Assembly (NCBI GenBank): GCA_044892505.1
Contig: CM097883.1
Location: 322,958,001 to 323,022,000 of the forward strand
Source: Schmidtea nova
Lineage: Eukaryota
DNA length: 64,000 nt
Direction: 5' to 3'
In this document: piece after piece, positions 3,413 through 30,037 of the stretch
Numbering within the stretch: the stretch's first letter is position 1
Layout of the letters: the number at the start of each line of letters is the position of its first letter
The notes under the pieces: generated by a model
What the model was told of the DNA's origin: nothing
What the model saw: only the letters and a program-made list of their open reading frames with translations
Databases searched by the model: none
Program-made: the position numbers and the translations under genes

Positions 3413-3732
3413 TTGAATCGATGGCCACCTGTTTTTAAATTTAATAAATGTTTTAGAGAAATCTGAAGTGTCTCATTTTGTTGATAGTATTGTAATGTAG
3501 ATTTATTAATATCCAGCGTTGTAGTTGTTATAGTCATTAGGAAATTCATTTACTAATTAGTTCAATAAATCTTTTGAGCCTTCAATAATTAGATAGTTAA
3601 ATAATTTTGCAAAGAACTCAATAATTAAAAACATTAGTATGCATCTCGTTTAATAATAATAATAGTTGTCTAAATAAAATACCATTGTTGATAGGTTCTC
3701 CAGCGAATTTATCGTTATAATATTCAGACATC

Positions 3733-4317: not shown

Positions 4318-4881
4318 GAAAACATCAATGTCAAATAACAACCTGTTTTTATTATTTTAATAAAAGTATTTTGTGTAAATTTTGTCTCTCATCGTATGAC
4401 TTCACTAAATAAAATAAATAACTCGATTAAATCATAGAAATAGAAAATCTCATCAGTATTTTTTTCAGACCGACCGTTTCTACGTAGAGACTGATTAATT
4501 ACCTTGTAGATCAGTTAAGGAAAGTGCAATTGGGGAAAGCGTGTGATAGATCATGAGGATAGGTAGTATAAAATTCATTGGGAAACGAACATCCGTAGAA
4601 TGTAAATGCGTAAGACCTTCTATCGGCAGCAAGGACCCGAGGGAAGATAAATGGGGAGTAGTTTTGGCAACAAAGCTCACCTGCCCATCATTTTTCCAAC
4701 CCCGTATGCAGTACCAACTTGACTAGTAGGGAATAGTCAAGGGCATGCGCGTGTAGTAGTCATGTTATGTATGGTTATGGGCGTGGAATCCCTAGTATAC
4801 GTACTCATCAATAGTCGTTCAATTAATGATTAACTATTTATTTGAATTACTTAAAACCCACCCATAATCCCAGCATAAATT

Positions 4882-4899
4882 TGGGGGCTCAGCCGGGAT
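4882..4899 (+). promoter_or_regulatory. Primer binding site, tRNA-Pro type
   Basis: TGGGGGCTCAGCCGGGAT matches the MLV tRNA-Pro PBS (TGGGGGCTCGTCCGGGAT) at 16/18 and lies 6 nt after the LTR end. Confidence 0.85.
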
Positions 4900-6760: not shown

Positions 6761-7305
6761 CGTCGACGATAATGAGAATAGTGCGCACCAATAATTGAGA
6801 AATGCGAGTAAAGCTGATTATGCGACCTAAAATAATGCATGCAAGTAGAATTGAGAAATAGGAGCTGACCGGAAAGACCGGCAGAATTAATAATTAGAGG
6901 CTAGCAGAGAGAAAGATAAAGAGATGATAAAATAATAAACGAGTCAAATGACTCAGGAAATTAGAGCGTTCGAACGACAAATAAATTGGGAGACCGCGGA
7001 AAAAATAATTGATGTATTTTAATAACCGATAGATAATTGTTATGACTAAATAGATAATTGTGACCAGTATATAGATAATTTAAATAGACTTAAATAAAGG
7101 GGAATCTGGGAATGGGGAAAAATAATAGAAACCCAGTAATGAGAAGTCCCGTAAAAAGGGAATAAAAGCGCAACGATAACAATAGAGTATCGTTGAAGTG
7201 ACATTTGTATTTTAGATAAATCAATCAAATGAAACCAATCAACCAAGGAAGAAAAGAATCGGAATACGATAAGACAGGAAAATTGAGTATACAAAAGTAA
7301 TCCCG

Positions 7306-9063: not shown

Positions 9064-12000
9064 TATGATGAGAGCAACCAATCAAACAAATACCCACGAG
9101 AAAGAGATTGTGCCAGAAATAAATCCAACAAACCCGAATCCAACCAACAACGAAGGCCGAAAAGAGATAATACAAGAAGATGAAGAAGCAGAAAAAGAAA
9201 CAGAAAAGGAAGTAGAAAAAGAAGGGAACCAAGAAGAGAAAAGGAAACTCGGGAAAAGAGGAATGATGGTAATTTTGCCAAACAAGCACGTGTTTCGATT
9301 CCAATATAACATAAAGGAAGAAGTAGGAATATTGTTCAACAAAGTGAATGAAATGGCTCCAGGAGTAACGAAACTGCCCAGAGAAGCATTCCTAAAAATA
9401 GAAGGTGCACCAGAAGTAAAATTGAAACTAACGGATACATGGGAAAACATGGGAGTAGTAGAGACAAAAAGAAATGTGATGGTAATCAAGGAAATAGAAC
9501 CAGAAGGAATTCCATCGCCAGTGCGTCACGAAACACGAATCAGTCGAATATTTAAAGGGAAAATGATACGAAGACGGTTGGGAGAAATAGACGAGTTAGA
9601 ACGAAAAATGAGAAAGGTCGAAGTAGTAGACGACAAGAGTAAATCAACACAAAAAACTATCAAAAGTGAGACGAAACCAACAGAAAATCCACCAAGCGAA
9701 ACCAACCAAATAAAACACATTAACATGTTGAGAGGCCAGGCAAAGAATTTCTCAGATGACGAAGAGGATAGTGACATCAGTAGTCTAGCAGGGGACATGC
9801 TAAACGAACCGGAAATTGAAGACAAAAAGATAGAAGTAGTAAAGACACCAGAAACTATTCAAGTAAAAGAAGACGAGATCCAGAAATTATTAGATAACGC
9901 GCTAGAAGTAATATATAATGAGGAATTCATCGACAAGAAACACTATCGGAAATTCATGAGAGCAATATTACAAATGAATTATAAAGAGTGGTTATCAGGC
10001 CGAGAAGTAGAAACACTAAGCCAATACGTAGGAAAATTATTAAAAGAACCACTCCATGAATATATAATCCTAATACAGATAAAAACATGTTTGCCAAGGA
10101 TTTGGATCAAAACTCCACTCACGGAGGACATTTATCAATGGGTAGAAGACAGATTAGGGAGTTCGTATAAGAACAAATTCCTCTATTCACAGAATGGACT
10201 AGTGAAGAAAAGGACGCATTTGATAGAAACAGGCATATGGCCAGGAGAGGTGACAACATTATCGATATGCGATGATAAGAGAGAAGAGAACCTACAAGAA
10301 GTAGCAAAGGAAGCGAATACGTGTTTCGAGAAGAAGATAAAACCACGGTTAGAATATGAGAAAGGACGAATCTTACGAGGAAATCTAAACTCCATGATAG
10401 AACAAATCATCCCACAAATCAAAAAACATAGAAAGGAGTTAATGAGAAGCGAGTACGAGAAGCTGAAACGATGTATCGAGTGCATACGTGACACAAGTCA
10501 CACGAGATGGTCACAGATCTCATACGGAAAAGTAATTGCCAAAATGGGAAAAGCAATGTTTAGACAAGGAAAAATAACAGATCTAAAAATTTCAGTGGAA
10601 CTGCCTAATGAGGATACCAAAGAAATTGAAGTGGTAGCAGATTGTACCATAAAAGAATTGGTGAACGTCATCAATGAGACGCTATTACAAAGAGAACCAG
10701 AAGAAGAATGGGAAGATGACATAATCATGAAATATAATGAACATGTATTATGGGATCACGATGAAAGACGGCTATATAAAATTGGTATATGGGATAATCA
10801 CCAAACCATCCACGTTATCAGAATGGACGATACACCAAGAGAAACTGCTAAAGATGAGAAAAGAGAACGGGAACGACAAAAAGAAGTTGTGCATAAATTA
10901 CAACAAATAGTAGACATCTATCGAAATTGGCGGATTTGGCCAGAATGGGAAAATGTATTAGAAGAACTCAATCTCAACAGACGATTACGAACACCTGTAG
11001 AAAAGAAATGGAACGAGCGAGGAAAATGTTGGGAACCAAAAGCAGGCGAATACGAAGAAGAATATGAAATAGGCATAGAAGACGATCACAAACCGGAAAC
11101 CGGAAGAGTCTGTATGGTAACAAGAAAAGCCATGCCAGCGGATTTAGACGGACCAGAAACGGCAACCATGTGGTTGGAAAGAGAAAAACAAAAAACGGAA
11201 GAATTTGTCGAAATATTAAAAACCAATGCTCATGGCAAGAGAAAATTAGTAAAAGGTCTCGCAGATTTTTTCGTAGTTAATGGAGAAGACATAACATGCT
11301 TGCGTAAAGTAGCAAAAGCAATCGCCGAATACAAAAGAGTTAACGAGTGGTGTCCAGAACAATTGGATCACGTAATTAAAAAATGGAGAAACCAAGAATT
11401 CTCGCAGGAATCGCCACAGAAAGTACACCTAAGAATAGTATATCCGAACCAAGAAAAGGAAGAGTTTTGGGTAGGGATAGCGGAGAAAGTTCGAGACATT
11501 AAAAAGAAATTGAGATATGAACCACCATTCCATTTACAACACCAAGGACGATCATTAGATAACAGCTTAGAAATTGGAATAACGCCAGCGCAATTAGATA
11601 TCGCAAATACATTGACAGTGGCAGCAATAGCAGGTCAACCATTGAAATTGAAAGAGGAAAAGAAACCAAAAGGAAGTATGAGTACGCCGAGCCCAACGAA
11701 ATCGGTAATGACTTCAGGAACAAGCTCAGAACAAGCTAGAACAACACCAAGAGAGACAAGAGAAAGAACACCACCAGAACCATACGATGTAGACGAAATT
11801 TTAACAGATAGCGATGATATGTTAGAAGAACTAATAGAGCTAACAAAAGAAAAAGATGATAATATTTTCGAAAGAATCCAAGAATTACCAACAGCAATAC
11901 CGGTAACCAACACCGAAGATGAAGTCGAACAAGAAATAATCATAGAAGAAGTAAATGAAATAGCAGAAGAGGAAGCAAGGAGGGCAAACGTAGAAAACGT

Positions 12001-15000
12001 ACAATTCACACAGGAAATGGAAAGATGGTTAGAAGAAAGAGCCAATGAACCAAGAGACGTCACAGAAGAAACTGGACGAGAAACGAGATTGGTAGAAACG
12101 GGCACGACAATGGATAAACGACCTATAGGTAGACCCAAGATGGATCCAGCAAACGTAGTTATAAAATCAAGAGAGGAAAAAAGACGGGATCAATGGGATT
12201 TGTGTCTAAAGAAACTAAATAAAATAGCCGAAACAAAAGAAAAAGAAACAACACAAACATACCAAGGCGAAGAATGGATATCAAAGATGTTAATAGAAAT
12301 ACTGGCAATAATCGATCCAGAATTAAAGAAATGGTGGAGAATAAGCGAAATAAGCGAAAGGGCAAAATCACTGCATAGCGCCATCGCACCAATCCTACCA
12401 GAACTAATAAAAGAAAAGACAAGGTCAAACCACCTAGATTGGCAAGGAACCACGATGTTGATAAAGAAGTTAACGGGAGGAGCAGAGACGGATAACAAAT
12501 ATTTAATAGCTATAGCATACACCATTTACAATCTGTTGACACTGAGTAGAGGTCGACTAAAACCCACAGCACTTGAAAGACATATAAAGAATACAGCCAA
12601 AATTATAGAGAAAGAAATAGAACCGTACATCATCAGTAAAGGAGGATGGGAAACATTCACAAAACCGAACCAAAAGAAAAACCAAGCCAAAAATATGAAA
12701 AAGAAATTCGAAGAGATATTGGGAGAATTGGAAAAGGAAAAGTCGGGAACAGGAAACGGGAAATCGTCACTAAACTTGAGTTCCATTATTATGATGATGT
12801 TAATATGGATGATTAGTACTGACGGCGCAACAGCATTTGAAGTATTCGATTGCGATCAAATGGCATTAGGTGAAAAATACTCATTACGAGGGACAGAACA
12901 ATGTAAAGACGCAACCCCAACGGAGCTAAAAACATTAAAAAAGAGACAATTATACCACGTATATCAGGAAGCGGAACTGATAAGAACAATGGTCAGAGAA
13001 TGCAAAGTTTATAAAACCAGATTTGCTTTTTATTGTGGGCAGCGCCATTATTCAGCAATCGTGATGCCAGGAACGGAAAGAGAATCGGTAATGCTGCAAG
13101 GAGAAGACTGTGAAAAATTATTCAAACATGGAGAAGTAGAGACTAGAGATAGAGTAAAGATAAGAGGAAAAACGGGAGTGATATTGCAACAAACATATTA
13201 TGTAGCAGGAGCTATTACGGGAGGAGAAGGGTATTGTCAAGGAGCAACATATCCAATATTCGGAGTAGCAGCAACAAACCTAGTAGTAATAGATACGTAT
13301 ACAGTGGAACTAAAAACGTACGAGGCATTCTTCGATCCAACGACGGGAGAAATGAAAACTCTACCTATGTGCAAAATCGAGTCAAACACTTGTCAAACCG
13401 GTATGTCAACCTTAACATACCAGATACGAGGAAAGGAATGTCAACTACAACTGTTAAAGGAAGCAGAATTCGATGAGATACAAGGGAAAACCTTCCAAGA
13501 GGAAGAAGAAGACGAGGCAGCAAGAGGAAAAATACTTCAAGACACCGTACGAGGAGAGAAAAAGATCGAAACACGAACACAAGAAAAACAAATTAAAATG
13601 AGAAATACACCAACGGTACTAATTACCTCAGATGCAGATATCGGAATGAGGTTTGTAAAAGGAAAAACAGCCTTGAAATGCGGAGTAGCCATGTTGGAAA
13701 CCAACTACCCCGGCATTTTCGTATCGAAACAAGAAGTACCTAGTGCGAAACGCAAAGTGAACACGAACGATGTTAAATTACACCTGTACATGAACAATAA
13801 AATGGATTTTCTATTCCATAGAGGACAAGCGTCACTACAAAAAGTGTATTACGACTTAATAAATAACGATTGTATATTAAATAGGGAAATATTAAAGACA
13901 AAACTAGCAGTAGCAATCACAAACCCGGACAGTGCAATGCCACTATTACCATTGAGAGAAGGTCATTTTGGAAGGGTAGTCGGAGAGGTCATGTACGTAT
14001 ACATATGTAAAAAGACAAACGCGAAGGTAGCGACAATGACAAAATTACAACCAGGTCAGTGTACTAACGAACTAGAAATCGAATATAAAGGGAAAGTAAG
14101 ATATGTGCAACCAGTGACAAGAATCATAAATCCAATAAGCTTCGAACCAAATCCTTTCAATTGCAGCAACGCATATGGACCACTATACCAAAAACCAGAC
14201 GGAAATTGGGTTATGTTTCCGTCAAGAACAGAGGTACCAGCACCAAGGGAATTTGAATTGATGCAACTATCAAAAGGACGAAAATTTAAAGACGTAGATG
14301 TAAGTAATATGGGATTCTATAGCGCAAAAGACTTAGAGGCAGCGAGACAAAACATACTATTTCCAGCAAGAAGGGAAGCGGTGCTATCCAGTATTGTAAC
14401 AATAACAGGAGGAACAAATTACCAAGGTGGACCAAATTACGAATTATTATTGTCACCAGCCCACTTTAAGAAGGCAACGGAAAACATGATGAAAGCGATG
14501 TGGGGAAGATTTTTAATATTTGGACAAATGATGGCAGGAATACTTGGTGTTATACTAATTATACAAATAATACGGGTAATAATAACGCAAATGTTAGCCT
14601 GTTTTGACATCTATAAACGAGAAAAGAAAGTAAATTGGAAATTGGTGGTAGGATTCTTACCATTTTTGGCTAAAACAATGGTATTACACGGCCATTCAAA
14701 AGATATTCACCGAATAAAAAGACTCCTAAAAATACTAGCAAAAATGAAAGGAACCGACGAAGAGGTGGGACGAAAATTTAAAAAGATAATGAATAACGAG
14801 CAAACAAGACAACAACTAAAGAAAGAGAGAAAAGGACTATGGGAAAGAATGAAAGGGTACAGAACCCAAGACGATTCCAGTGGCGACGATGATGATGATA
14901 ACGAAGGAGGCCAAGTATATAAAAATCAAGTACCACAATATGTCGAAAAAAATCCAGCAGAAATGTGGAAGTGTTACGCACCCCCACCAACCATGTACCA

Positions 15001-15085
15001 AGAACCAACACCAGGGATGAGACAAAATACAATGCAAATGATGCCGATGACAAACATATATCCTATGATACCAGAAGACTATTGA
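8984..15085 (+). CDS. env: 2033-aa ORF2: ubiquitin-like domains, Bcl-2-like domain, internal signal sequence, chuvirus/gB-like class III envelope glycoprotein, TM and tail
   Basis: UBL-like segments at ~10064-10268, 10583-10822 and 11420-11626. BH2-like IEPYIISKGGWETF at ~12617-12658. Signal-like IIMMMLIWMISTDGATA|FEVFDC. Cys-rich ectodomain with ECKV..FYCG and GHFGRVVGEVMYVYIC. TM at ~14510-14605. Confidence 0.8.
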   Translation: MLRNGQEYKEKRNKKQQERERQPLRINMMRATNQTNTHEKEIVPEINPTNPNPTNNEGRKEIIQEDEEAEKETEKEVEKEGNQEEKRKLGKRGMMVILPNKHVFRFQYNIKEEVGILFNKVNEMAPGVTKLPREAFLKIEGAPEVKLKLTDTWENMGVVETKRNVMVIKEIEPEGIPSPVRHETRISRIFKGKMIRRRLGEIDELERKMRKVEVVDDKSKSTQKTIKSETKPTENPPSETNQIKHINMLRGQAKNFSDDEEDSDISSLAGDMLNEPEIEDKKIEVVKTPETIQVKEDEIQKLLDNALEVIYNEEFIDKKHYRKFMRAILQMNYKEWLSGREVETLSQYVGKLLKEPLHEYIILIQIKTCLPRIWIKTPLTEDIYQWVEDRLGSSYKNKFLYSQNGLVKKRTHLIETGIWPGEVTTLSICDDKREENLQEVAKEANTCFEKKIKPRLEYEKGRILRGNLNSMIEQIIPQIKKHRKELMRSEYEKLKRCIECIRDTSHTRWSQISYGKVIAKMGKAMFRQGKITDLKISVELPNEDTKEIEVVADCTIKELVNVINETLLQREPEEEWEDDIIMKYNEHVLWDHDERRLYKIGIWDNHQTIHVIRMDDTPRETAKDEKRERERQKEVVHKLQQIVDIYRNWRIWPEWENVLEELNLNRRLRTPVEKKWNERGKCWEPKAGEYEEEYEIGIEDDHKPETGRVCMVTRKAMPADLDGPETATMWLEREKQKTEEFVEILKTNAHGKRKLVKGLADFFVVNGEDITCLRKVAKAIAEYKRVNEWCPEQLDHVIKKWRNQEFSQESPQKVHLRIVYPNQEKEEFWVGIAEKVRDIKKKLRYEPPFHLQHQGRSLDNSLEIGITPAQLDIANTLTVAAIAGQPLKLKEEKKPKGSMSTPSPTKSVMTSGTSSEQARTTPRETRERTPPEPYDVDEILTDSDDMLEELIELTKEKDDNIFERIQELPTAIPVTNTEDEVEQEIIIEEVNEIAEEEARRANVENVQFTQEMERWLEERANEPRDVTEETGRETRLVETGTTMDKRPIGRPKMDPANVVIKSREEKRRDQWDLCLKKLNKIAETKEKETTQTYQGEEWISKMLIEILAIIDPELKKWWRISEISERAKSLHSAIAPILPELIKEKTRSNHLDWQGTTMLIKKLTGGAETDNKYLIAIAYTIYNLLTLSRGRLKPTALERHIKNTAKIIEKEIEPYIISKGGWETFTKPNQKKNQAKNMKKKFEEILGELEKEKSGTGNGKSSLNLSSIIMMMLIWMISTDGATAFEVFDCDQMALGEKYSLRGTEQCKDATPTELKTLKKRQLYHVYQEAELIRTMVRECKVYKTRFAFYCGQRHYSAIVMPGTERESVMLQGEDCEKLFKHGEVETRDRVKIRGKTGVILQQTYYVAGAITGGEGYCQGATYPIFGVAATNLVVIDTYTVELKTYEAFFDPTTGEMKTLPMCKIESNTCQTGMSTLTYQIRGKECQLQLLKEAEFDEIQGKTFQEEEEDEAARGKILQDTVRGEKKIETRTQEKQIKMRNTPTVLITSDADIGMRFVKGKTALKCGVAMLETNYPGIFVSKQEVPSAKRKVNTNDVKLHLYMNNKMDFLFHRGQASLQKVYYDLINNDCILNREILKTKLAVAITNPDSAMPLLPLREGHFGRVVGEVMYVYICKKTNAKVATMTKLQPGQCTNELEIEYKGKVRYVQPVTRIINPISFEPNPFNCSNAYGPLYQKPDGNWVMFPSRTEVPAPREFELMQLSKGRKFKDVDVSNMGFYSAKDLEAARQNILFPARREAVLSSIVTITGGTNYQGGPNYELLLSPAHFKKATENMMKAMWGRFLIFGQMMAGILGVILIIQIIRVIITQMLACFDIYKREKKVNWKLVVGFLPFLAKTMVLHGHSKDIHRIKRLLKILAKMKGTDEEVGRKFKKIMNNEQTRQQLKKERKGLWERMKGYRTQDDSSGDDDDDNEGGQVYKNQVPQYVEKNPAEMWKCYAPPPTMYQEPTPGMRQNTMQMMPMTNIYPMIPEDY

Positions 15086-15139
15086 ACGAGACGGTGCAGA
15101 AGCGTAGATCCGCAAGGAGACTCACATACAATTGCAGTA

Positions 15140-15817
15140 ATGTCATCAAACACCGGTCCAGTATTAACCACCACAATCGAAATTAACGGAAGGGAAATTG
15201 AAGCGATGATTGATACAGGAGCAAATATCTCAGCAATAGATATAAAATGGATACCACAAGAACAAAGACGGGAGATTGAGAGAACCAACGTTCACGTAAT
15301 AGCATGCAGTAAAGAAGTAGTAGAAGTTGCCGGAAGATGGTGGGTAAAGATAAAACATCAAAACACGGAAATCGAAACGTACGTAGCAGTAATACCAGCA
15401 CTAAGCGTACCATGCATTATAGGCACGGATCTGATGCCAGCATTATTTAAAGAAATAGTTATTGATCTCGGAACAATGAGACTAAAGGATAGGACAGGAC
15501 AGATATGCGCAATAGAAGCAAAAGTAACAAGTTCGAAACAAATAATCGTACCAGCCCGGAGAGAGAAAATATGTTTCGTAAAAATAGATCCTACAATAGA
15601 AGGTGACATGATCTTTGAACCCAGTAAAAGATTTGAAAAGAGAAAGTCGTTGCCAATGGCAAGGGGATTAGTGAGTGCGAATGACAACGGAGAAATCCCA
15701 ATAAATGTAGTAAATTTCGATGAAGAGGATAAAATAATTTATGAAAATGAAAGATTAGGTAAACTAACTCCAATGATGGATATCGAAATACCAATAAGAG
15801 AGGGAGAAAAAAGATGA
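15140..15817 (+). CDS. Retropepsin aspartic protease followed by a possible degenerate dUTPase-like spacer
   Basis: AMIDTGANISAI catalytic motif and CIIGTDLM flap-distal motif. In frame with ORF2 across a single TGA. Confidence 0.92.
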   Translation: MSSNTGPVLTTTIEINGREIEAMIDTGANISAIDIKWIPQEQRREIERTNVHVIACSKEVVEVAGRWWVKIKHQNTEIETYVAVIPALSVPCIIGTDLMPALFKEIVIDLGTMRLKDRTGQICAIEAKVTSSKQIIVPARREKICFVKIDPTIEGDMIFEPSKRFEKRKSLPMARGLVSANDNGEIPINVVNFDEEDKIIYENERLGKLTPMMDIEIPIREGEKR

Positions 15818-18800
15818 AGAACCCACCTGGAACATTGATAGCCAACTATTAAATGAGGATCAAAAGAAACAGCTAGAAAGATTACTGATAGAATATAAAG
15901 ACATATTCGCAGCATCCGATTTAGATCTAGGGACATGCGACGTCACACTACATACGATTCCACTAACAGACGAAACGCCGATTGCGTTAAGACCATACAA
16001 GTTAGCTGAAGCGCAAAAATCAGTAGCAGAAGCAGAAGTACAGAAAATGCTAGACGCAGAAGTAATTGAACCAAGCTGCTCACCGTGGCAATTCCCAGTT
16101 GTAATGGTGAAAAAGAAAGACGGAACACAACGATTTTGTATTGATTATCGGAGATTAAATGCGGTAACAAAACGGGATACATACCCATTACCAGACATCA
16201 ACGAGATGTTATTGACATTACAAGGAGCGGCATATTTTACATCATTGGATTTGAAAAGCGGATACTGGCAAATTAAAATGAAGGAGGAAGACAAAGAGAA
16301 AACTGCTTTCACTATCGGAAGAGACTTGTACCAATTTAGGAAAATGCCATTCGGACTAACCAATGCGCCAGCATCATTTCAAAGATGTATGAATTTCGTT
16401 ACCCACGGCATAAAACAATGCATGGTTTACATTGATGACCTACTAATCTACTCAAGCACATTTGAACAACACATCCAAGATATCAGAGATGTATTTGTGA
16501 GATTGAGACAATGGAAACTCAAGCTCAAACCATCGAAATGCGATTGGGCAAAGGAGAAAGTGACATTCTTAGGACATATTGTGTCCGCAAAAGGAAAGGA
16601 ACCAGATCCCAGAAACATTGATAAAGTAAAAGAATGTCCAGTACCAAAGACGATAACGCAGATCCAAGAATTTCTCGGATTATGCGGTTACTATAGGAAA
16701 TTCATAAAGGATTACGCAGGAATTGCAAAACCAATCCAAGAACTAGTGAAGAAAGACGTATCATTCATATGGGGAAGCGAACAACAAACCGCCTTCGAAA
16801 CATTGAGAGATAAGTTAATAACTGCACCAATATTGGTTCACCCGGATTTCAAGAAGCCGTTCTTACTCGCGACTGACGCAAGTGGATATGCAGCAGGAGC
16901 AGTGTTAGGACAATATGATGACGAAAGTAAAGAACGAGTAATTGGATACTATAGCAGAACATTCAAGAAACACGAGAAGAATTATTCAGTAACGGAAAGA
17001 GAAGCATTGGCGATAATATTAGCAATAAAACACTTTAAATATCTACTATGGGGACACGTTATATGCATAACCACGGATCATCAACCACTTGTATGGCTAG
17101 GACAACATAAGGAAACATCCAGCAGATTAATGAGATGGGCGATGCAATTACAAGAATATTCACCAGATATAAAATTCAAATCAGGAAAAGCGAATGCCAA
17201 CGCAGATTGCATGTCAAGATTAACGTTTCCAGAACTAACAGACCCAGAAGTGCAAAGAATATGCATAGTGATAGCAGAGGATTTGGATTTCAGCGAGTTA
17301 AAGAAAGATCAGCAAGAGGATAAAGAACTAGGACCCATAAAAGAATTCCTAAGCTCACGGAATATGGATGTATTCAAAGACAATGCGGAGTTAAAAGAAC
17401 ACATGAGGAAATACCAACATCGATACACAATAGAAAAAGGATGGTTGTTAATACAAGATGGAGAGAAACGATTAATGTGTCTGCCAGGCAATAGACGAAA
17501 AGAGATAATAACTCAATACCACGACGGAAAGTTGGGAGGACACATGTCCGACAAGAAAACATTAGATCGCATGAGACAAAAATATTATTGGCCAACAATG
17601 GACGAGGACGTAAAGGAATGGATAAAGAACTGTTTAACTTGTGCCACAAGAAAAGATAGTGGGAAGAAATGGAAAAATCCCTTAAAACCCATGCCGATAC
17701 CAGCAGAACCAATGACTACCATTGCGATGGATGTAATAGGACCGTTGCCAGAAAGTTTAAACGGGAATCAATATATATTGGTAATAACGGATTATTTGAC
17801 TAAATTCCCTGAGGCATTTGCGATGCCGGATCAAAAAGCAAAGACCGTAGCAAGAATTTTAGTAGAGGAAATATGTTGTCGATACGGAACCCCGAAACAA
17901 ATACTGACAGATCAAGGAACAAATTTTATGAGCGAAATATTAGATGAAGTAACAAACTACTTCAGAATAGCCAAATTACGAACGTCACCATATCATCCGC
18001 AAACCAATGGACAAACGGAAAGATTTAACGGCACATTGATTCGAATGTTATCCAATTATGTAAGCAAACATCAAACAGATTGGGATGAATACGTAAAGCT
18101 ATGTCTAATGGCATACCGAATGTCGATACACGCAGCAACAAAACTGAGTCCATTTCAATTAATGTATGGAAGGGAATGCAATATGCCAATAGATCTTGAA
18201 TATCAACCACCTTTGTCTCAATATATGGAGGAAGATGATTACGTCACCAAATTCAAAGAACGAATGCAAGAGATATGGAAGACAGCAGAACTAAACATAA
18301 AGTTTTATCAAGAAAGTTACAAGGACCTACACGATCAAAAGAAAAATGTTAAAACAAATAATCTTAAACCCGGAGATTGGGTAATGATAGAAACCCCAGA
18401 AATAATACCAGGAACCGTTAAAAAACTACAAAGACCAGGAAAAGGCCCTTACGAAGTTATATACAAAAAGGAAAACAATGTGAAGGTAAAACTTGTTAAT
18501 CGACCATTGATACGACCAATATACGTTAATACATGCAGATGTAAGAAAGTACCAAAAACAATAACCACAGCGCCAGAAGAACGAATAATAACCAGATCCC
18601 AGACAGCCAGAATGAATATGCTCAGAGCAACCAATGAAAGTACCGAAGCAGAAAACAATCAACAAGAAAAAAGAAACAAGGAAATTGTACTAAAAGCCAG
18701 AGAAATAATGGGAAAATGGCATGTCAGAGACGATATATTAAGAGATATACAGTTGATAATTAGTGATTACGCAAGGGGACTACCAACAAAACCAGTCATT

Positions 18801-21800
18801 TCAGAACTACTGGAAAAAATTCCAGAAGTACTTTTACTACAAGACATAGGAGGACAACCAGCATTACATAACGCCATAAAATGGGGAGAAGTAGAGAGAG
18901 TAAAAGAATTTCTAAAAATCGCTAAGGAAACAAACCAACACCTTGGTTTTGGGAATAGCGAACAAGAAACACCATTAATGGTAGCGGCCATCTACAAATC
19001 GGATAAAGCAATAGTAGACCTTTTGATAAATGCCAATTTCAACTGGACGGAACGCGATAGAGAAAACAAAACAGTCTTGAATCACGCAATATGGAGCTCA
19101 AATCAGATAATGCTCAAACAAATAATCGAGAAGGCCACTTGGGAAATCGACGAACTGATCAAAGGTGATATAATCAAGGAGGCAATAAAAATCGGTAACA
19201 GCAAAACAATACGCAAGCTAATAAAATGGAAAAGATCTGAAAATGATACATGGGTGTTAAATATAAACGAGGTATACAGTGAAGGACAAAACGCGTTATT
19301 ACAATTTCTATTAAAATTCGTTTGTGATCAGAAAACACTGTTAACGTTATTAGATAGAGGAAATATCATAATTTCCAAAAACATAGAGGAGTGTAAATTC
19401 GAAAGTGAAAAAGAAGCATTATTCAGGAATATTAGGGAATGGTGTGCAAAATCGCTAACCAAGACGATAACTTACAAAGATATATCCAGTTTTCATGATA
19501 AATACAAAACGGTGGAGGAAGAGTATGGCAGACTAATAGACATATTAAACCACCCCGAAAAATGCAAACAATTCCTATGTCGAAAGGAAAGAGAAAGCAA
19601 AAGGAAATTTACACCACTTTTCAGCGCAGAGGTACCATATCAAGAAAGGTTGGATGCGATACAAGACAAAGCAAAAGAACTATTACCAGAATTCGAAAAT
19701 TCTAAACATACACTGGAGATACTCGGAGCAATTGTGGAAAAGGTACACGCATACGCGGAAGGAACTTACAATGAAAACGATATGATGATCATAAAAAGAG
19801 AAATGCCAGTAACTTTCTTATTAACAAAGAATGGAGTATTGCCAATACATAGAGCCTTACGAGCAAGAAAAGAGAGGAGGATAGTCGAAATTGCACGGTT
19901 GATGCAAGATTGCGGAAATGACATGAACATGAAAGATAAAAAGGGAGATACCCTCATGATATTCGCAGCAAGAGCGAACACAAAAACCCGAGTGTTACAG
20001 GAACTGTACGAAGCAGGTGCAGGGCTCATGGGAAGAACGGGCAAAGACAGCTCAATACTAGACGTAGCATTGTTAACGCACAATTGGGAGGTGATAAATT
20101 TTATAAAAACAATCACAAATCAGGAAGAAATAGAATACCTTACAAGGACAGTTAAAAAAGCTAGCGTACATTCCATGATGCATAACACTGAACTAACCGA
20201 AGCAATACTCAATTGGATGAACCCAAACACCAATGAACCAGCATTCAGGATCAACGAGTTCATGGAACAAGGCCAAAATTTATATATAAAGTGTGCATTA
20301 ATAATAAACAAATGGCCAAAGATAATAGACATCTTCATGAGAAGAAACGATTTACGATTCACAAACAACCCAAAGGAAACAGAACGTACGGAAAAATGGA
20401 AAGAACTAATGAAAACGTACCTTAATAATTGGATAAAAGCCAAGAAAGAGATTCTAGATTGTAAATTAACCGATAAGGAAATACCTAAACAGGCATTAAC
20501 ACAAGAATATGAAGCAAGTATACTCACAACCATAACGTATGAAAAAATGATAGAAGCAATTAATGTCGAGGACGACATTTTTAACGACCAAAGGGGAGGC
20601 GACAATACAGGAAGCGACGACGATAGTACTCGAGAAAATCCAGAGGATCATGAGTTATCAGATAAAGAGGACAGTGAAGAGAAAGGAAGGGACACAGAGA
20701 AAAATGATAAGAAAAATGAATTTGGGAAACAAAGAAACAACAACTATAAAAATAAAAACGAAGCAAAAAGAACAGGCTACAAACAAACAATAAACCCATT
20801 CCTTAAACCAGAACTATTATTACTAACGGTAATCATGACCTTAATTAGTCCAACTCAAGGAATGATATGTGAAGAAAGAGCGACAATACAAATTAGAAAC
20901 GCAAAAGGAATCGAACGAGTATGTTGGTCAAAAAAGGACAAAATCTCGGGACAAAATAGTCCAATGGATTGCAGGATCTCAGAATACGAACAAGAAATCA
21001 TAGAGATCGATGACTTAGAGCTAGATACTTGGTACAAAATATGCACCATCAGAAAACAAAGGAATCCAAGATCACACAACACAATCGCATGTGCAAACTA
21101 CCTAACACCCAAAGTAACCATAACAGTACAGCAGTCATCCAAAGGAGACTATGTCGTAGGAAAGTGTGGAAGAACAGAGACACAAGGAACAAAAAACAAG
21201 AAACCCCAGACAATAGATAGACGAACAACGCCAACTATACGAATTACAATAGACAAGCCCGAAGCAAGAGTAACCACAAACGAAACCGAAAGAGTGACCT
21301 ACCAAACAGAACTACTATGTTTAGCACTCATATTAACAATGTTAAAACGGTTAGAAGAAGGGATAGACATTGAGACAATGGCAGTAACAGAGATGAACGA
21401 CACCCAAAATACCAACCCAAAGTGTTGGGCCAGAAACAACGAAGAAATTGGCATAAGCGAAATAAAGACGAGTCGGAAAAGGAAAACAAATAAAGTAACC
21501 AAGATATCAAAATTAAAAGCAGACAGGACGTATGAACTATGTTTACTAGAAAAAGAAAGACACAAGAAAGGAACGACAATTTGTAAAACATTTCAACCCG
21601 GGGAAGCAATAAAGTTCATAAGAAGAAGAAGAAATATACGCACCAAACGGAGAACAACTATAATGTTGGAGTTAACCGGAATAGAACCGGACGTCAAAGG
21701 CGTATGCTGGAAGAAGCAGGAAAGGAAAACAAACCAGAATACACCGCCGCAATGTCAAACAAACAGAGGAACAACCACAATACAGATAGAAGGATTAGAA

Positions 21801-22751
21801 AGCAATCAAACGTACGAAATATGCTTGATTAGGAAAAGCGACAAAATAACAGTAAATGAATTGGAATGCAAATTATATAAAACACCCACCAGAACAAGAG
21901 TTGGAAAGACAACGCGAAAAAGTAGAAGACAACGGAACAAAGGAAAAGCGAGGTATACCACTACTTTTAAACCTAATGGACAACAGAAAAACCAAGAAAT
22001 ACAAATAAAAGCCGAAAAGAATACTACAGCAACTCTTATACTATGGAGAATAGACAATAAAACGTTAGAAATATGTTGGGTAATAGTTCAGAAACAAAGG
22101 GAAAGACAGCCACGAAACTGTGGAAACGTGAAAGGAAAAGAGGAAATAAGTATCAGAAATCTGAAATTCAATAGCGAATACGAGATATGTGCGATAGAAA
22201 AGACGGACATATTGGGAAATCAGCAGGAAAGATGCGAAACGTACTACACACCGGTAAACTCAACGTCCAAAGGGAAAGTGAGAAAACTCGAATTTAGAGA
22301 ATTAAGTCAGACAACGGAACAAATGGACGCAGAACAAGTAGTAATAGACCCTTACGCAAGATGGACGCCGGAAGAAGTAATTAAAGAAGTTAAAAGAAAA
22401 CAACAAGAACGAGAACAACTACTAAATAAACTAAAGGGACAATACGGACCAATGATTAACCAAAGTGAAATTACAAAGATAGACACAAACAAACAAGTTA
22501 GAGAACTAATTGGTCTAGGAATACTAGCAGCAACTATTCCAGTAATAACAGTGTTATTAATAATATGGATATACGATGTACTCAACAAGAAACCAATAAC
22601 ACATTGGCCAGATATAAAAATTATGAACTACAGAATAGAATTACCGGAAGAAGTACAGAAAGAATTTCAAAGGAGGACGAAAGGTAAAGAATTTTGGAGA
22701 CAAATAGAAGATGAAGAGCGGTACGAAGGAAAGACAGTGATGGTGATATAG
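15798..22751 (+). CDS. pol: Pol (RT, RNase H, integrase with GPY/F) extended by ankyrin clusters and an FN3-repeat membrane protein
   Basis: Frame is open from 15798 (…LIEYKDIF…PIALRPYKL…) although the ORF track starts at 16047. Motifs: YIDDLLI (RT), TDASGYAAGAVL (RH), HDGKLGGH..CLTC, MDVIGP/TDQGTNF/GQTERFN (IN), GPY. ANK motifs at ~18840-20340, signal-like segment ~20810-20861, FN3-like repeats ~20862-22260, TM ~22506-22574. Confidence 0.95.
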   Translation, partial: EREKKDEEPTWNIDSQLLNEDQKKQLERLLIEYKDIFAASDLDLGTCDVTLHTIPLTDETPIALRPYKLAEAQKSVAEAEVQKMLDAEVIEPSCSPWQFPVVMVKKKDGTQRFCIDYRRLNAVTKRDTYPLPDINEMLLTLQGAAYFTSLDLKSGYWQIKMKEEDKEKTAFTIGRDLYQFRKMPFGLTNAPASFQRCMNFVTHGIKQCMVYIDDLLIYSSTFEQHIQDIRDVFVRLRQWKLKLKPSKCDWAKEKVTFLGHIVSAKGKEPDPRNIDKVKECPVPKTITQIQEFLGLCGYYRKFIKDYAGIAKPIQELVKKDVSFIWGSEQQTAFETLRDKLITAPILVHPDFKKPFLLATDASGYAAGAVLGQYDDESKERVIGYYSRTFKKHEKNYSVTEREALAIILAIKHFKYLLWGHVICITTDHQPLVWLGQHKETSSRLMRWAMQLQEYSPDIKFKSGKANANADCMSRLTFPELTDPEVQRICIVIAEDLDFSELKKDQQEDKELGPIKEFLSSRNMDVFKDNAELKEHMRKYQHRYTIEKGWLLIQDGEKRLMCLPGNRRKEIITQYHDGKLGGHMSDKKTLDRMRQKYYWPTMDEDVKEWIKNCLTCATRKDSGKKWKNPLKPMPIPAEPMTTIAMDVIGPLPESLNGNQYILVITDYLTKFPEAFAMPDQKAKTVARILVEEICCRYGTPKQILTDQGTNFMSEILDEVTNYFRIAKLRTSPYHPQTNGQTERFNGTLIRMLSNYVSKHQTDWDEYVKLCLMAYRMSIHAATKLSPFQLMYGRECNMPIDLEYQPPLSQYMEEDDYVTKFKERMQEIWKTAELNIKFYQESYKDLHDQKKNVKTNNLKPGDWVMIETPEIIPGTVKKLQRPGKGPYEVIYKKENNVKVKLVNRPLIRPIYVNTCRCKKVPKTITTAPEERIITRSQTARMNMLRATNESTEAENNQQEKRNKEIVLKAREIMGKWHVRDDILRDIQLIISDYARGLPTKPVISELLEKIPEVLLLQDIGGQPALHNAIKWGEVERVKEFLKIAKETNQHLGFGNSEQETPLMVAAIYKSDKAIVDLLINANFNWTERDRENKTVLNHAIWSSNQIMLKQIIEKATWEIDELIKGDIIKEAIKIGNSKTIRKLIKWKRSENDTWVLNINEVYSEGQNALLQFLLKFVCDQKTLLTLLDRGNIIISKNIEECKFESEKEALFRNIREWCAKSLTKTITYKDISSFHDKYKTVEEEYGRLIDILNHPEKCKQFLCRKERESKRKFTPLFSAEVPYQERLDAIQDKAKELLPEFENSKHTLEILGAIVEKVHAYAEGTYNENDMMIIKREMPVTFLLTKNGVLPIHRALRARKERRIVEIARLMQDCGNDMNMKDKKGDTLMIFAARANTKTRVLQELYEAGAGLMGRTGKDSSILDVALLTHNWEVINFIKTITNQEEIEYLTRTVKKASVHSMMHNTELTEAILNWMNPNTNEPAFRINEFMEQGQNLYIKCALIINKWPKIIDIFMRRNDLRFTNNPKETERTEKWKELMKTYLNNWIKAKKEILDCKLTDKEIPKQALTQEYEASILTTITYEKMIEAINVEDDIFNDQRGGDNTGSDDDSTRENPEDHELSDKEDSEEKGRDTEKNDKKNEFGKQRNNNYKNKNEAKRTGYKQTINPFLKPELLLLTVIMTLISPTQGMICEERATIQIRNAKGIERVCWSKKDKISGQNSPMDCRISEYEQEIIEIDDLELDTWYKICTIRKQRNPRSHNTIACANYLTPKVTITVQQSSKGDYVVGKCGRTETQGTKNKKPQTIDRRTTPTIRITIDKPEARVTTNETERVTYQTELLCLALILTMLKRLEEGIDIETMAVTEMNDTQNTNPKCWARNNEEIGISEIKTSRKRKTNKVTKISKLKADRTYELCLLEKERHKKGTTICKTFQPGEAIKFIRRRRNIRTKRRTTIMLELTGIEPDVKGVCWKKQERKTNQNTPPQCQTNRGTTTIQIEGLESNQTYEICLIRKSDKITVNELECKLYKTPTRTRVGKTTRKSRRQRNKGKARYTTTFKPNGQQKNQEIQIKAEKNTTATLILWRIDNKTLEICWVIVQKQRERQPRNCGNVKGKEEISIRNLKFNSEYEICAIEKTDILGNQQERCETYYTPVNSTSKGKVRKLEFRELSQTTEQMDAEQVVIDPYARWTPEEVIKEVKRKQQEREQLLNKLKGQYGPMINQSEITKIDTNKQVRELIGLGILAATIPVITVLLIIWIYDVLNKKPITHWPDIKIMNYRIELPEEVQKEFQRRTKGKEFWRQIEDEERYEGKTVMVI

Positions 22752-23290: not shown

Positions 23291-23321
23291 ATAACAAATC
23301 AAGTGTATATATCATTGTAGA

Positions 23322-24698
23322 ATGAATACAGAAGGAAAAGCCGAAGAGCGGATAATCGAAATTTTGAGAGCCGAGAACAGGAAATGGAGTCAGAGACTCA
23401 CTTGTGTAAATTGTAAAAACATAATATTGAAACCAAGACAAACCCTATGCGGATGCAGAGTATGTACCAAATGCATACACGAGTTAAGTATGAAAAGACC
23501 ACCAGAATGTCCAGAATGCAAAGGACAAATAAAATTCGAAGAAACCAGACCAGATAGAGCAACTCAGAGAGAAATCATGAACACGAAAACCGAATGTATA
23601 AATCAACCATGTATATGGCAAGGACAAATACGCGATCTCGAGAACCATCTGGAGAACTGCGAAAAGAAAACTGAATGTAACAAATGCCAACAAAAAATAA
23701 CTATAAAGAATAAAGAGCAGCACAAAGATGAATGTAAAGAAGAGGAAAGTCTATGCGAATATTGTGGAACTCGAGAAACGAGGAGAAAGATCGAAGAAGA
23801 ACACCTGAATGTAAAAGAGGAGAAAGTATGTAGACAATATGTAGGAATATGTTCAAACGAATGCGAGATAACGGTAGAAGTAAAATTACAAGAACATTGG
23901 AAAGTGTGCACGGAGAAACCAAGGGAATGTCCTTATAACAAACAGGGATGTATGGAGAAAAGAACGCAACAAACCATGAAACAACATCTGGAGGAAGCAT
24001 TGCTAAAGCATGCGGAAATGACAAACGAAGCAACAAAAGAAACCGAACAAACGATCAAAAAATTAGAAAGAGAAATAGAGTCACACAAGATAATGGTAAG
24101 CCTACTGTTGGAAACCAGAGAGCAATTCGAACTAACACGAGAAAAAATGAAGAGAAAGATAAAAGCTATTGAAGAATTGGCTAAAGGAATGAAAATCCAA
24201 TACAACAAACTCACCCAGGATACCGAGGAAAAGCTACCAATCGCACCATACGTATGGAAAGTGACAGATTTTAGAGACAAATTAACACAGGCCCGAAACA
24301 TGACGAAAACAGCAGTAATAAGCCCACCATTTTATTTATGGAGAAACGGAGCTAAAGTGAGATTGAAGCTATACCCAAATGGAGACGGAAGAGGACGAGG
24401 AACACATGTGTCAATATTTTTCTCGCTATGTAAAGGAGAATACGACGACCTAGTAGAATGGCCCTTGAAAGTAGGAGTCATTGTAAGAATCAGAAGTGTA
24501 ACAAAACCAGTAGAAAAATTCTTTGAGACAGAGAAACATGCGAGTACAAGCGAGAAACCAACCACAGAATGTGGATTAGCAGCGGGAGAACCGATGTTTA
24601 TAACGAAAGAAAGCCTATGGGAACGATTATATGCAGACACCCTATATATAGAAATGGAAAGGAACGAGAAAGCGGATAGAAAAGGATGGTTGACGTAA
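23322..24698 (+). CDS. TRAF: Full-length intronless TRAF-family protein (RING, TRAF zinc fingers, coiled coil, MATH/TRAF-C)
   Basis: RING CVNC..KPRQTLCGCRVCTKC..CPEC, then PDRATQREI and zinc fingers. MATH domain YVWKVTDF…SPPFY…KLYPNGDGRGRGTHVSIFFSLCKGEYDDLVEWP parallels TRAF2/3/5. Confidence 0.95.
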   Translation: MNTEGKAEERIIEILRAENRKWSQRLTCVNCKNIILKPRQTLCGCRVCTKCIHELSMKRPPECPECKGQIKFEETRPDRATQREIMNTKTECINQPCIWQGQIRDLENHLENCEKKTECNKCQQKITIKNKEQHKDECKEEESLCEYCGTRETRRKIEEEHLNVKEEKVCRQYVGICSNECEITVEVKLQEHWKVCTEKPRECPYNKQGCMEKRTQQTMKQHLEEALLKHAEMTNEATKETEQTIKKLEREIESHKIMVSLLLETREQFELTREKMKRKIKAIEELAKGMKIQYNKLTQDTEEKLPIAPYVWKVTDFRDKLTQARNMTKTAVISPPFYLWRNGAKVRLKLYPNGDGRGRGTHVSIFFSLCKGEYDDLVEWPLKVGVIVRIRSVTKPVEKFFETEKHASTSEKPTTECGLAAGEPMFITKESLWERLYADTLYIEMERNEKADRKGWLT

Positions 24699-26733: not shown

Positions 26734-28095
26734 TGTTGGGCCAGCCAAATAGAGGGAAAAGTGAAATAAAAGTAGAATAATTAAAACAAAAAGAGAAAAA
26801 TAAGGTAAAAAGGGGGAATATTAATTTGTTAAAAGAAAAGAGTAATATAGTTAAAATATAGATAAATTAAGAACAAACTATAAATAAAAATAAATGAATT
26901 TCTAGATATTAACGGGCCCAGGAGGCATCTAAAAACAAAATAAATACAAATAATAATAATTAAAACCAAATAAAAGTACTTGTTATTGAATAATTGTTTT
27001 TGAAACCCAGACCTCCGAGGAAGAATACAATCTAAAAAATAAAAATTAATTAGAATCAAAAATAATAATCAAACCCACCATGAAACTGGCCGAACCTGAT
27101 TGGTCGGTCTAGACACGACTGATCAGTATAAATACTGATCAGATTTTTCATAAAATCAGACTTTGGTTGAGACTAAAATTTAGACGGTGTAAAAACTTAG
27201 ACTTGTGTTCAGACGAAAAATTCACATTAGATTGTACATTGCTCCGACCGAGATCACCACTAAGTTGATATTAACCAGGCTGATTTTCAATAGACGATCA
27301 CCGTTTAGACCGATTTTAATCAAACCAATTTTCGGGATTCAATTTAGGTATTTTTGATATATTTACGTTTATTATTGATATTGTTGTATTCATATGTCAT
27401 CACATTAAAATTTATTGATTATTTATCTCATTATGATTTATGTTTATATTTAAAATATATAATGATCATATTAATTTTGCGCCGTTGGGAGCTCTAGGTT
27501 CCCAAGGTGTCAGTCCGTGGCGTGGTGCTCGAGGGCTCCACACACGGTAAAGTAATAAATAACCAAATATGATTTTATTAGTAGTGGTCGAGATTTGCAC
27601 ATGGGACACCCAACGAATCCGGGGAATTATTTTCCGATCATTTTAGCTATAGAGGAGGCGATTTTCAGATAAAGTCTAACGATGTAGGATAGGAAAGAAT
27701 TTTTGACTGTGAGGAGGCACAATTTTTCACCCTCACCACAGCACAGTCACTAAACCGCAGAAAATTATGTCGACCGCATTTGATACGAAAGGGGCGTCTT
27801 TCGAGTAAGTTAGGGAATACATGATGTGAGAGAGTTTCCGTTTTGAGGTATCAATGTTTCAATATCCAAGCAGACAAATCACCATTTTTCGACTATATTA
27901 TTGAACAAGAACAGATAAATCTAAGCATACACGAGAGCAATGTATACCGTAACAAGCAACAGTTTTTCTTGATTTCAGTTAAGGTCTAAGGGGAAGGCAA
28001 ATAATAAAGGCATCACGATGAGAGATAACATCTACTATAATTAATTATTGATTTAAATTGTTAACTATTATAAAATTCAGCATCGTTCTAGTATC

Positions 28096-28572
28096 ATGAC
28101 TAAGCACAGATTCACCATCAAAAAGCGACGAGAACGAGCCCGACTTAGCCCATTAAAGCCGGCTCCTTTTGAGATTTTGCAACAAATCCATCAAAAAATG
28201 TGGGCATGGCGCCGAGAGCTTGAAACCGCATGTCCATTTACAGTATGGGACCATCCACGGCATCACGTATGGTACCGGGGATGCGCTAGTTGGCCAATCA
28301 TTCCAGACGAGGAATTCGAATCATGGCACGCCGCCTGGTTCGTTCTGATGTTAGATAAAAGAGGATTCCCGAACTGTGTAATTTATTGGGGGTTCATTCC
28401 AGCCTCTACATTCAAGGAATTGGGGTTCAAGTTCCATACAGCAATACGACCCCTTCGAGAAGCTGAGAGGATCCGTTTTCAACAGGCCTCGTCCAATATC
28501 ACAGGAATCAACACAAATTTGCAAATCAGATCGATATTTTCGTACCGAGGAAAAATGACCGAAGATGAATAG
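28096..28572 (+). CDS. ORF-A copy in the 3' LTR
   Basis: Identical translation to 2936-3412. Confidence 0.65.
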   Translation: MTKHRFTIKKRRERARLSPLKPAPFEILQQIHQKMWAWRRELETACPFTVWDHPRHHVWYRGCASWPIIPDEEFESWHAAWFVLMLDKRGFPNCVIYWGFIPASTFKELGFKFHTAIRPLREAERIRFQQASSNITGINTNLQIRSIFSYRGKMTEDE

Positions 28573-28892
28573 TTGAATCGATGGCCACCTGTTTTTAAAT
28601 TTAATAAATGTTTTAGAGAAATCTGAAGTGTCTCATTTTGTTGATAGTATTGTAATGTAGATTTATTAATATCCAGCGTTGTAGTTGTTATAGTCATTAG
28701 GAAATTCATTTACTAATTAGTTCAATAAATCTTTTGAGCCTTCAATAATTAGATAGTTAAATAATTTTGCAAAGAACTCAATAATTAAAAACATTAGTAT
28801 GCATCTCGTTTAATAATAATAATAGTTGTCTAAATAAAATACCATTGTTGATAGGTTCTCCAGCGAATTTATCGTTATAATATTCAGACATC

Positions 28893-29294
28893 ATGCCGGT
28901 TTCAGAAAACTCGAAGAGAATCATGGGACAAATCCAAGATAGAAAGTTGAGGGACCAGCAGCGGCAGATCAAGCGACTCACGGTCGCCAATGATGAATTG
29001 AGAGCGAAGTGGTTCTCGTCCAAACAAATGAAGGACCAATCGAAAAAACTCGAGCGAATGCAGGAAGCACTGGCCGCAACTAAATTGGAACTAGACGCCG
29101 TCCAGAGAGAACTACGAAATTGCCTAACTGCAGTAACAAGAAGCTATATCGACTCCGAATTACGAGCGCTAATCCGGCCGATCACGGCTCAGCGCTGGAC
29201 ACAAAGTACTTATCAAGATGTCGCTTGCGGGACGGAAGATGGTATCCTCATGGCCCCCACTCTTGTAACGGCCGATTTGCCTACTTTTCAGTGA
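28893..29294 (+). pseudogene. ORF-B copy in the 3' LTR, truncated to 133 aa by a 2-bp deletion
   Basis: TTTTCA-CA-GTGA becomes TTTTCA-GTGA; also an E-to-K change at 29022. Confidence 0.8.
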
Positions 29295-30037
29295 TCCATC
29301 GAGAACAATGGCGTCAGCACCTGTCCTAAACCAACCGCTTCGAAAACACCGAATGGGATCGCGACAGCGTCGTCGTCGCCGAGAATTTGCGAAGCGCCTG
29401 GACGAGCAAATCCACCACTTAAACTCCTTAACCGAAGCAGAGTTGATTCAGGAGATTAGTCTGGAGTTTGCATAGGAAAACATCAATGTCAAATAACAAC
29501 CTGTTTTTATTATTTTAATAAAAGTATTTTGTGTAAATTTTGTCTCTCATCGTATGACTTCACTAAATAAAATAAATAACTCGATTAAATCATAGAAATA
29601 GAAAATCTCATCAGTATTTTTTTCAGACCGACCGTTTCTACGTAGAGACTGATTAATTACCTTGTAGATCAGTTAAGGAAAGTGCAATTGGGGAAAGCGT
29701 GTGATAGATCATGAGGATAGGTAGTATAAAATTCATTGGGAAACGAACATCCGTAGAATGTAAATGCGTAAGACCTTCTATCGGCAGCAAGGACCCGAGG
29801 GAAGATAAATGGGGAGTAGTTTTGGCAACAAAGCTCACCTGCCCATCATTTTTCCAACCCCGTATGCAGTACCAACTTGACTAGTAGGGAATAGTCAAGG
29901 GCATGCGCGTGTAGTAGTCATGTTATGTATGGTTATGGGCGTGGAATTCCTAGTATACGTACTCATCAATAGTCGTTCAATTAATGATTAACTATTTATT
30001 TGAATTACTTAAAACCCACCCATAATCCCAGCAAAAT

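Follow-up and report, generated by a model that had tools for sequence, protein, structure and literature searches.

A signal-FN3-transmembrane module behind the integrase of a giant Burro-like Gypsy element, a candidate second surface protein

The planarian elements Burro and GYPSM1 are about 28–30 kb long, with multi-kb long terminal repeats (LTRs) and a giant open reading frame (ORF) in which env lies between gag and pol (PMC6431247). Their cargo includes ankyrins and MATH/TRAF domains, and one Burro-like ORF has 5,140 aa (PMC6431247). Errantiviruses with a GAG-ENV-POL order and an HSV/gB-type Env are reported from Platyhelminthes, Nematoda and Bryozoa, with flatworm members listed (PMC13524379). 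In Drosophila, the single-pass FN3 (fibronectin type III) surface protein Sas, which has a short tail, targets vesicles carrying Gag-derived dArc1 capsids to receptor-bearing cells (PMC10289811). Here we analysed a window of 64,000 nucleotides from Schmidtea nova (GCA_044892505.1, CM097883.1, positions 322,958,001 to 323,022,000), which holds a 28.5-kb LTR retroelement of Burro-like Gypsy type (1574–30033, interior about 25 kb). Behind its integrase and ankyrins the Pol ORF carries a signal peptide, four repeats predicted to be FN3-like, a transmembrane segment (TM) and a tail. We show the layout, frame and conservation of this module and its presence throughout a clade of related elements. 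With somewhat less than even confidence, we read it as a second surface protein that would be cut free by signal peptidase, likely as the attachment or targeting partner of the fusogen.

The element agrees with Burro and GYPSM1 in its giant size, long LTRs, single ORF with in-frame env, and ankyrin and MATH/TRAF cargo, and its commonest intact ORF length, 5,140 aa, is that given for one Burro-like ORF (PMC6431247). It differs in that the signal-FN3-TM module is unnamed in section 7 of PMC6431247, and in that TRAF, which according to the same source lies within the ORF or upstream in Burro, is encoded here by a downstream accessory ORF. With the gB-type errantiviruses it shares a class III-type fusogen ahead of Pol (PF24664, E = 1e-69). 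For those, the portions of PMC13524379 covered discuss the integrase C-terminus only for chromodomains; “fibronectin”, “immunoglobulin” and “ankyrin” have 0 occurrences in its main text, as have “fibronectin”, “FN3” and “ankyrin” in seven text supplements. The element type is known already. The module is new within the literature searched, in whose text no description of it was found (an earlier annotation may exist), and its function we infer.

The ORF at 15798–22751 runs without a stop for 2317 aa, in the order reverse transcriptase (RT), RNase H, integrase (IN), ankyrins, module; features of the element whose coordinates are written below with two dots are on the + strand. The module opens with an internal signal peptide (signal 1, LLLLTVIMTLISPTQG, 20814..20861) with a predicted cleavage site. 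The residues at −3/−1 are small: T and G in the window, G and A in the sister family A2, and T and A in a further family, D (the window copy belongs to family A). Repeat 1 (R1, 20880..21110) is an FN3-like sandwich of strands B–G with four conserved Cys. It is followed by a second hydrophobic patch (patch 2, LLCLALILTML, 21312..21344) and by repeat 2 (R2, 21366..21596), which has three Cys and is homologous to the other repeats, without a confident fold. A polybasic linker with strict furin-type sites, present in family A only, lies at 21621..21653. Repeat 3 (R3, 21654..21887) and repeat 4 (R4, 22023..22253) are again FN3-like sandwiches of strands B–G; the patch between them (21915..21935) is basic in A and A2 and has no strict furin site. 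A conserved membrane-proximal stalk (22254..22502; 42/83 residues identical between A and A2) leads to the transmembrane helix (22506..22574) and a cytosolic tail of 58 aa (22575..22751, stop codon included). The tail ends in V-M-V-I, a class II motif in the usual classification of PDZ-type C-termini.

The repeats resemble one another above chance (local alignment, 2000 shuffles each), with z 5.7–16.2 in five of the six pairs; R2–R4 is the weakest (z 3.1, P = 0.012). N-glycosylation sequons are not enriched in the module (7 vs 4.9 expected, P = 0.20). Two Cys flanking R1, at Pol residues 1691 and 1790, occur in 28/28 family-A and 0/20 A2 copies, possibly as a family-specific disulfide. A sequence-only reading of this DNA had listed a signal-like segment, four repeats, a hydrophobic patch, a TM and a tail of about 55 aa, and every motif stands where it had been placed. 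Its fusion to the C-terminus of Pol is accurate in that the ORF carries the module, but the ORF is merely the 3′ piece of a broken 5140-aa Gag-Env-Pol polyprotein. Of its two furin-like linkers, the one between R2 and R3 has the strict R-X-[K/R]-R, and RKSRRQR lacks it.

The fold was approached through models and profiles. An AF2 model of R4, made from a repeat alignment of 10 rows, reached a pLDDT of 83.6 and had six strands, with 14 upstream residues disordered. Its top rows in Foldseek were mostly FN3 (best E 0.018). Against VIA, all 50 rows were FN3 or FN3-bearing chains by title, including a few labels that we take to denote FN3-bearing chains; the best match had Z 8.7 and an rmsd of 2.6 Å over 76 residues. 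The VIA alignments begin at residue 12–18 of single FN3 domains, which is strand B. In a model of the whole ectodomain (pLDDT 53, pTM 0.26), the six-strand unit recurred in R1, R3 and R4, and R2 was poorly folded; this model matched fibronectin FN7-10 (E = 3.4e-6).

Sequence profiles gave fainter signals. Pfam on single repeats yielded only weak fn3 and Fn3_ELFN matches, and a search of the genome (G000) for an Fn3_ELFN host donor gave one match at E = 0.45, i.e. none. The profile of the window-type repeats had 10 PDB matches at E ≤ 10, nine of them FN3-bearing, with a ribosomal chance match ranking first. The Leu...Tyr corner of strands E–F is present, and there the profile meets fibronectin, tenascin and NCAM at weak E values of 0.9–1.6. 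The 658-aa module found 0 matches among 1.84 billion representatives, and the R4 model found nothing at E ≤ 0.001 in a viral fold library. Weaker viral matches to R4 were the envelope polyproteins of Walleye dermal sarcoma virus and WEHV1 (E 0.017 and 0.075).

R1, R3 and R4 thus model as two-sheet beta-sandwiches with FN3 strand order, and R2 joins them through homology only. The seven strands of FN3 are not reached, six being present and strand A absent; strict membership therefore fails, and we use the term FN3-like. The FN3 fold claimed in the sequence-only reading stands for three of four repeats, less strand A; for R2 it is not confidently supported. Since the Cys of the modelled repeats sit in strands C, C′, F and G, hairpin disulfides (C–C′ and F–G) are expected, and R1, R3 and R4 are predicted to be six-stranded FN3 sandwiches (B–G) held by them. 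An FN3 domain pinned by disulfides and lacking strand A would be a structural oddity, in which partner binding by strand addition is possible. Behind strand G, every repeat continues into a beta-like segment, for example at 22278–22304, where RKLEFRELS is identical in the window copy and in an A2 copy (in L063). An extra strand is modelled after R1 and R3, and the segment might complete the missing strand A.

With respect to topology, an intact natural copy of 5140 aa has five hydrophobic segments: the env signal, the env TM, signal 1, patch 2 and the last TM. The best 19-mer of patch 2 scores 1.15 in this copy, against 2.6–2.8 for the two TMs, and a full TM at patch 2 is disfavoured as too weakly hydrophobic. 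Patch 2 resembles signal 1 (PEMLCIAILI vs PELICVALIL in A2) and has no cleavage region; across families, its Cys is kept in 48/48 copies. It looks like a duplicated signal 1 that would usually pass into the lumen, a reading favoured by the conserved Cys pairs downstream of it. The type I membrane layout is borne out by models, fold searches and conservation. Shedding by furin came out weaker than proposed: the strict site between R2 and R3 is present in 27/27 family-A copies and in 0/20 copies of the sister family. A word after the integrase, RMNML, resembles words at other domain borders. A conserved spliced mRNA of the module’s own was rejected: upstream of the signal core family A lacks an ATG, and in A2 only 6/20 copies have an AG ahead of the ATG.

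Copies of families A and A2 were scored in G000 as the best-scoring among 3067 and 6448 candidates, respectively. Of the 67 scored family-A copies, 29 have a frame that is open over 5000 aa or more, in most cases 5140 aa, and joins Gag, fusion protein, Pol, ankyrins and module. The module is free of stops in 62/67 scored family-A and 56/63 scored A2 copies, and in frame with the integrase core in 49/67 and 44/63; it is thus neither frameshifted nor absent in most of them. The RT-RNase H of A2 is 92% identical to that of A, and the same module is identical at 247/616 residues (40%). Pooled pairwise dN/dS over the module was 0.25 for 28 A copies (30 loci minus two with stops) and 0.20 for 20 A2 loci, from non-independent pairs and a sample tilted toward intact copies. 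The module is under purifying selection. A and A2 have 16 Cys in common, one of them in 19/20 A2 copies. Between A and A2 the module is 40% and the fusogen 80% identical; between two distant families, B and C, the values are 60% and 85%. By part, 30/57 tail residues and 20/79 R1 residues are identical between A and A2, and 21/56 residues of TM plus tail between B and C.

We searched for relatives by RT-IN and used the best 120 of 1481 proteins (1274–4055 aa). Nineteen of these have a signal and an ectodomain behind the integrase, with a clear TM in 16, a weak TM in one and short hydrophobic ends in two. Among the remaining 101, post-integrase hydrophobic segments occur only in P0096, and there we take them for an env lying downstream. 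A quick RT-RNase H tree was built from 60 of the 124 rows, with every third background row kept (P0027 has no full RT); in it the four genome families, 18 module proteins, P0007 and P0020 form one clade (SH-aLRT 99). In this clade 22/24 rows have the module, i.e., a signal, an FN3-like, Ig or Cys-rich ectodomain, and mostly a TM. The sequence-only reading knew of no Gypsy Pol ending this way; in the search of other Pol C-termini, the ending marks a whole clade and not this element alone. Clade member P0021 is labelled as a protein of a Flavobacteriaceae metagenome-assembled genome and probably represents animal DNA binned with bacteria.

The heads of the 19 module proteins are repeats with the FN3-type E–F motif in 14, Ig in two and Cys-rich in three. 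Judged from sequence, the ectodomains are interchangeable within the clade. The profile of the database-type repeats matched neogenin (E = 0.0017), and 35/38 of its PDB rows were FN3-bearing by name, in a test biased by the repeats having been picked by the E–F motif. Compared profile to profile, window-type and database-type repeats met only over the E–F stretch (probability 6.6%, E = 0.0055; reversed controls E 0.09–0.13). The Ig domain of P0024 is recognized by Pfam (Ig_3, E = 4e-8); in P0024 and P0028 the chain closes behind the Ig domain with a short hydrophobic stretch that may be GPI-like or truncated. P0015, P0016 and P0018 have a small domain rich in Cys, and their tails bear a PPxY motif. 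In P0007, P0008, P0010, P0011, P0013, P0016, P0017, P0022, P0025 and P0027 an aspartic-protease-like domain lies between integrase and signal, and could free the integrase from the membrane. PDZ-type endings (class I or II) were found in 15/23 module proteins vs 5/101 other Pols.

Families B and C (L039-L056), also from G000 and about 47% identical over RT-IN, are env-bearing and have no ankyrins. They are about 16–17 kb long, with 0.86-kb LTRs and an ORF of 3,393–3,401 aa that ends in a signal, a beta-rich ectodomain, a TM and a short tail with the terminus ETFV; a profile comparison of this ectodomain matched no FN3 or Ig profile. Family D (L089-L096; G000:C1:108570000-108609999 and C1:357912000-357951999) is a 25.6-kb element, with identical 3.9-kb LTRs at the second locus. 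The two copies examined gave no gag, env, RT or IN match. They encode a protease, one ankyrin block, a degenerate signal, one repeat without a TM, TRAF, BIR-RING and a coiled-coil protein; the second locus additionally has two small membrane-protein ORFs. Family D resembles a non-autonomous derivative of Burro, present in many copies (150 BIR matches scored, most of them in frames of about 400 aa).

In the reading that we place first, the polyprotein would thread the ER (endoplasmic reticulum) twice, in a flavivirus-like manner: a signal, the fusogen and its TM, then a cytosolic stretch of protease, RT, IN and ankyrins, then a second signal, the FN3 module and the last TM. Fusogen and module would therefore be made 1:1 in the same membrane. 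Signal peptidase would release the module as a separate surface protein, and the viral protease would cut at the RMNML word, freeing the integrase. The PDZ-type end may sort the module to the membrane domain of particle exit or cell contact, and the exposed FN3 edge and basic patches may bind a partner on the cell surface or in the matrix. We rank attachment or targeting first because the module accompanies an in-frame env across the clade, because its head can be exchanged and has diverged at twice the fusogen’s rate, because family D, which has no env, is short of three repeats and the TM but still has the intracellular modulators, and because Sas offers a working precedent. A fuller version, held more tentatively still, is an entry system of two glycoproteins made within a single polytopic polyprotein, in which a class III fusogen before Pol is paired with a swappable post-integrase attachment protein that would set the target cells; the latter would have a PDZ-type tail and a head of FN3 type without strand A, of Ig type or rich in Cys.

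Several points weigh against this reading. The module is known here from sequence and predicted models. Packaging is not guaranteed, because a cleaved module has no covalent tie to the particle, and some chains could stop translocating at patch 2. Fold searches with a single repeat score in the middle range (Foldseek E 0.018, six chains at Z ≥ 8), R2 is unfolded in the model, the ectodomain pTM is 0.26, and the best Pfam fn3 score on the repeats, 13.3 bits, is below the gathering cut-off of 25. Sampling the best-scoring copies overstates intactness, and the shared ancestry of clade members overstates the significance of the PDZ-end contrast. The in-frame-env polyproteins P0035, P0052 and P0112, outside the clade, have no module, so this type of fusogen is not always in need of one. 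Finally, a decoy would be equally natural, because further cargo of the element mimics the host (ankyrins, TRAF and, as a weak match, Bcl-2).

The main rival, possible but rather unlikely, is such a decoy of a host receptor, or an immune modulator, which cells expressing the element would display or shed. Cytokine receptors have the FN3 fold, and the VIA matches include IFNAR1, gp130, IFNAR2, GHR and IL-20R (Z 7.2–7.9), but these rank no higher than fibronectin or Dscam. The strict furin site of the 27 family-A copies would free R1–R2, yet all 20 A2 copies do without it. About 10 residues past the TM, both A and A2 have W-P-D-[I/V], a half Box-1-like motif, which we take to resemble the first half of Box 1, the proline-rich motif behind the TM of class I cytokine receptors. 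It has no following P-x-P in either family, no P-x-x-P comes after WPD, and WSXWS is absent from the translation. The cytokine-receptor mimic proposed in the sequence-only reading is therefore not singled out. The rapid sequence change of the module would suit a decoy, as would ankyrin, TRAF and Bcl-2-like cargo as other mimics. However, unrelated folds occupy the slot in relatives, and family D kept its intracellular modulators and lost most of the module along with env (one family, two copies).

A sorting scaffold is unlikely. Here the TM and PDZ-type tail would mark the site of assembly or release (a junction or vesicle) and the ectodomain would be mostly spacer. Across the ectodomain swaps no feature is as constant as the PDZ-type C-terminus, and tail (30/57) and stalk are better kept than R1 (20/79) between A and A2. 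The tail of HTLV-1 Env is bound by Dlg1, which co-localises with Env and Gag (PMC3395148). However, the motif is missing from 8/23 module proteins, TM plus tail are just 21/56 identical between B and C, and a spacer does not fit repeats that are under purifying selection, keep invariant Cys and have been duplicated. A terminal Val can act as an ER-export signal, and may merely do so here.

Superinfection exclusion, in which the module would occupy a receptor on cells already expressing the element and so block re-entry, appears improbable. Receptor interference is known for retroviral Env, and the module is co-made with a fusogen, faces the cell surface and evolves fast. This reading, however, uses the same receptor binding as the attachment reading, and nothing favours blocking. 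A functionless stretch picked up from the host, or a frame open by chance, is a very improbable reading of the module and largely refuted: the 0 matches among 1.84 billion representatives and the low identity between families would fit, but dN/dS of 0.20–0.25, invariant Cys and a clade-wide layout do not.

The remainder of the element is as follows. The 5′ LTR (1574..4875, TG...CA) is 99.8% identical to the 3′ LTR (26734..30033), with four mismatches and three gap bases; the LTRs are 3.3 kb long, and a 4-bp target-site duplication, AAAT, lies at 1570–1573 and 30034–30037. Near-identical LTRs and the target-site duplication point to a recent insertion. A primer-binding-site-like stretch at 4882..4899, read directly from the sequence, is presumably tRNA-Pro-like. 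The Gag part (7273..9063; Retrotrans_gag, two CCHC knuckles) is followed, across a frameshift in this copy, by the middle of the polyprotein (8963..15085), with an internal signal, the PF24664 ectodomain, a TM and a cytosolic tail, ending here in a stop. The aspartic protease part (15086..15817) is frameshifted relative to Pol in the window copy, whose polyprotein is thus broken at three points, by frameshifts near 9.0 and 15.8 kb and by a stop near 15.08 kb. RT-RNase H-integrase occupies 15798..18587, and two ankyrin blocks 18645..20567 (Ank_2, E = 8.5e-14), with an acidic linker to about 20800. By Pfam the fusion glycoprotein, upstream of the protease, is of Monjiviricetes type; compared by eye, the window env resembles the Smed_errantivirus env rows.

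Downstream of the module there are an accessory TRAF-like ORF (23295..24698; zf-TRAF and MATH, MATH_2 E = 1.2e-20) and a coiled-coil accessory ORF (24772–25872) that ends in a class I PDZ-type motif, ETIV (ETFV in its family-D homolog). The Bcl-2-like domain is a weak Pfam Bcl-2 match only (E = 0.21). A 191-aa ORF (25935–26510) with an N-terminal signal-like stretch and a TM is a third candidate membrane protein of the element. ORFs inside the LTR (2897–3412 and 3721–4317, likewise in the 3′ LTR) have no Pfam match. Elsewhere in the window are an inverted repeat (55107–59079; arms of 1.35 kb, 92.7% alike) and an ordinary Gypsy PR-RT-RH-IN ORF of 1280 aa (60043–63885, − strand), unrelated to the giant element.

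Enveloped LTR retroelements have been described with a single surface protein; here a second one is predicted, a type I protein that occurs clade-wide and whose ectodomains can be exchanged. The planarian secretory cell nidovirus likewise has a giant polyprotein with ankyrins and extracellular modules, and a predicted release by signal peptidase and furin (PMC6211748); it differs in being an RNA virus with fibronectin type II, as opposed to the type III-like repeats here. Sas is a functional analogy to the module, and is a host gene and not encoded by an element. The class III fusogen gB of herpesviruses is aided by separate receptor-binding proteins (gD, gH-gL), and in polyproteins of the flavivirus type internal signals and TMs alternate in one chain; the element resembles both by analogy only. 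If the two-glycoprotein reading is true, it would bring a herpes- or paramyxovirus-like division of labour, undescribed for LTR retroelements in the literature searched. The module offers a handle on how these elements might pass from cell to cell in animals reliant on adult stem cells, and on whether they are infectious at all, and its ectodomain is amenable to testing in isolation. The analysis contributes the absence of strand A, the spread of the module through a clade in which its heads are swapped, the PDZ-type C-terminus and a furin site confined to one family.

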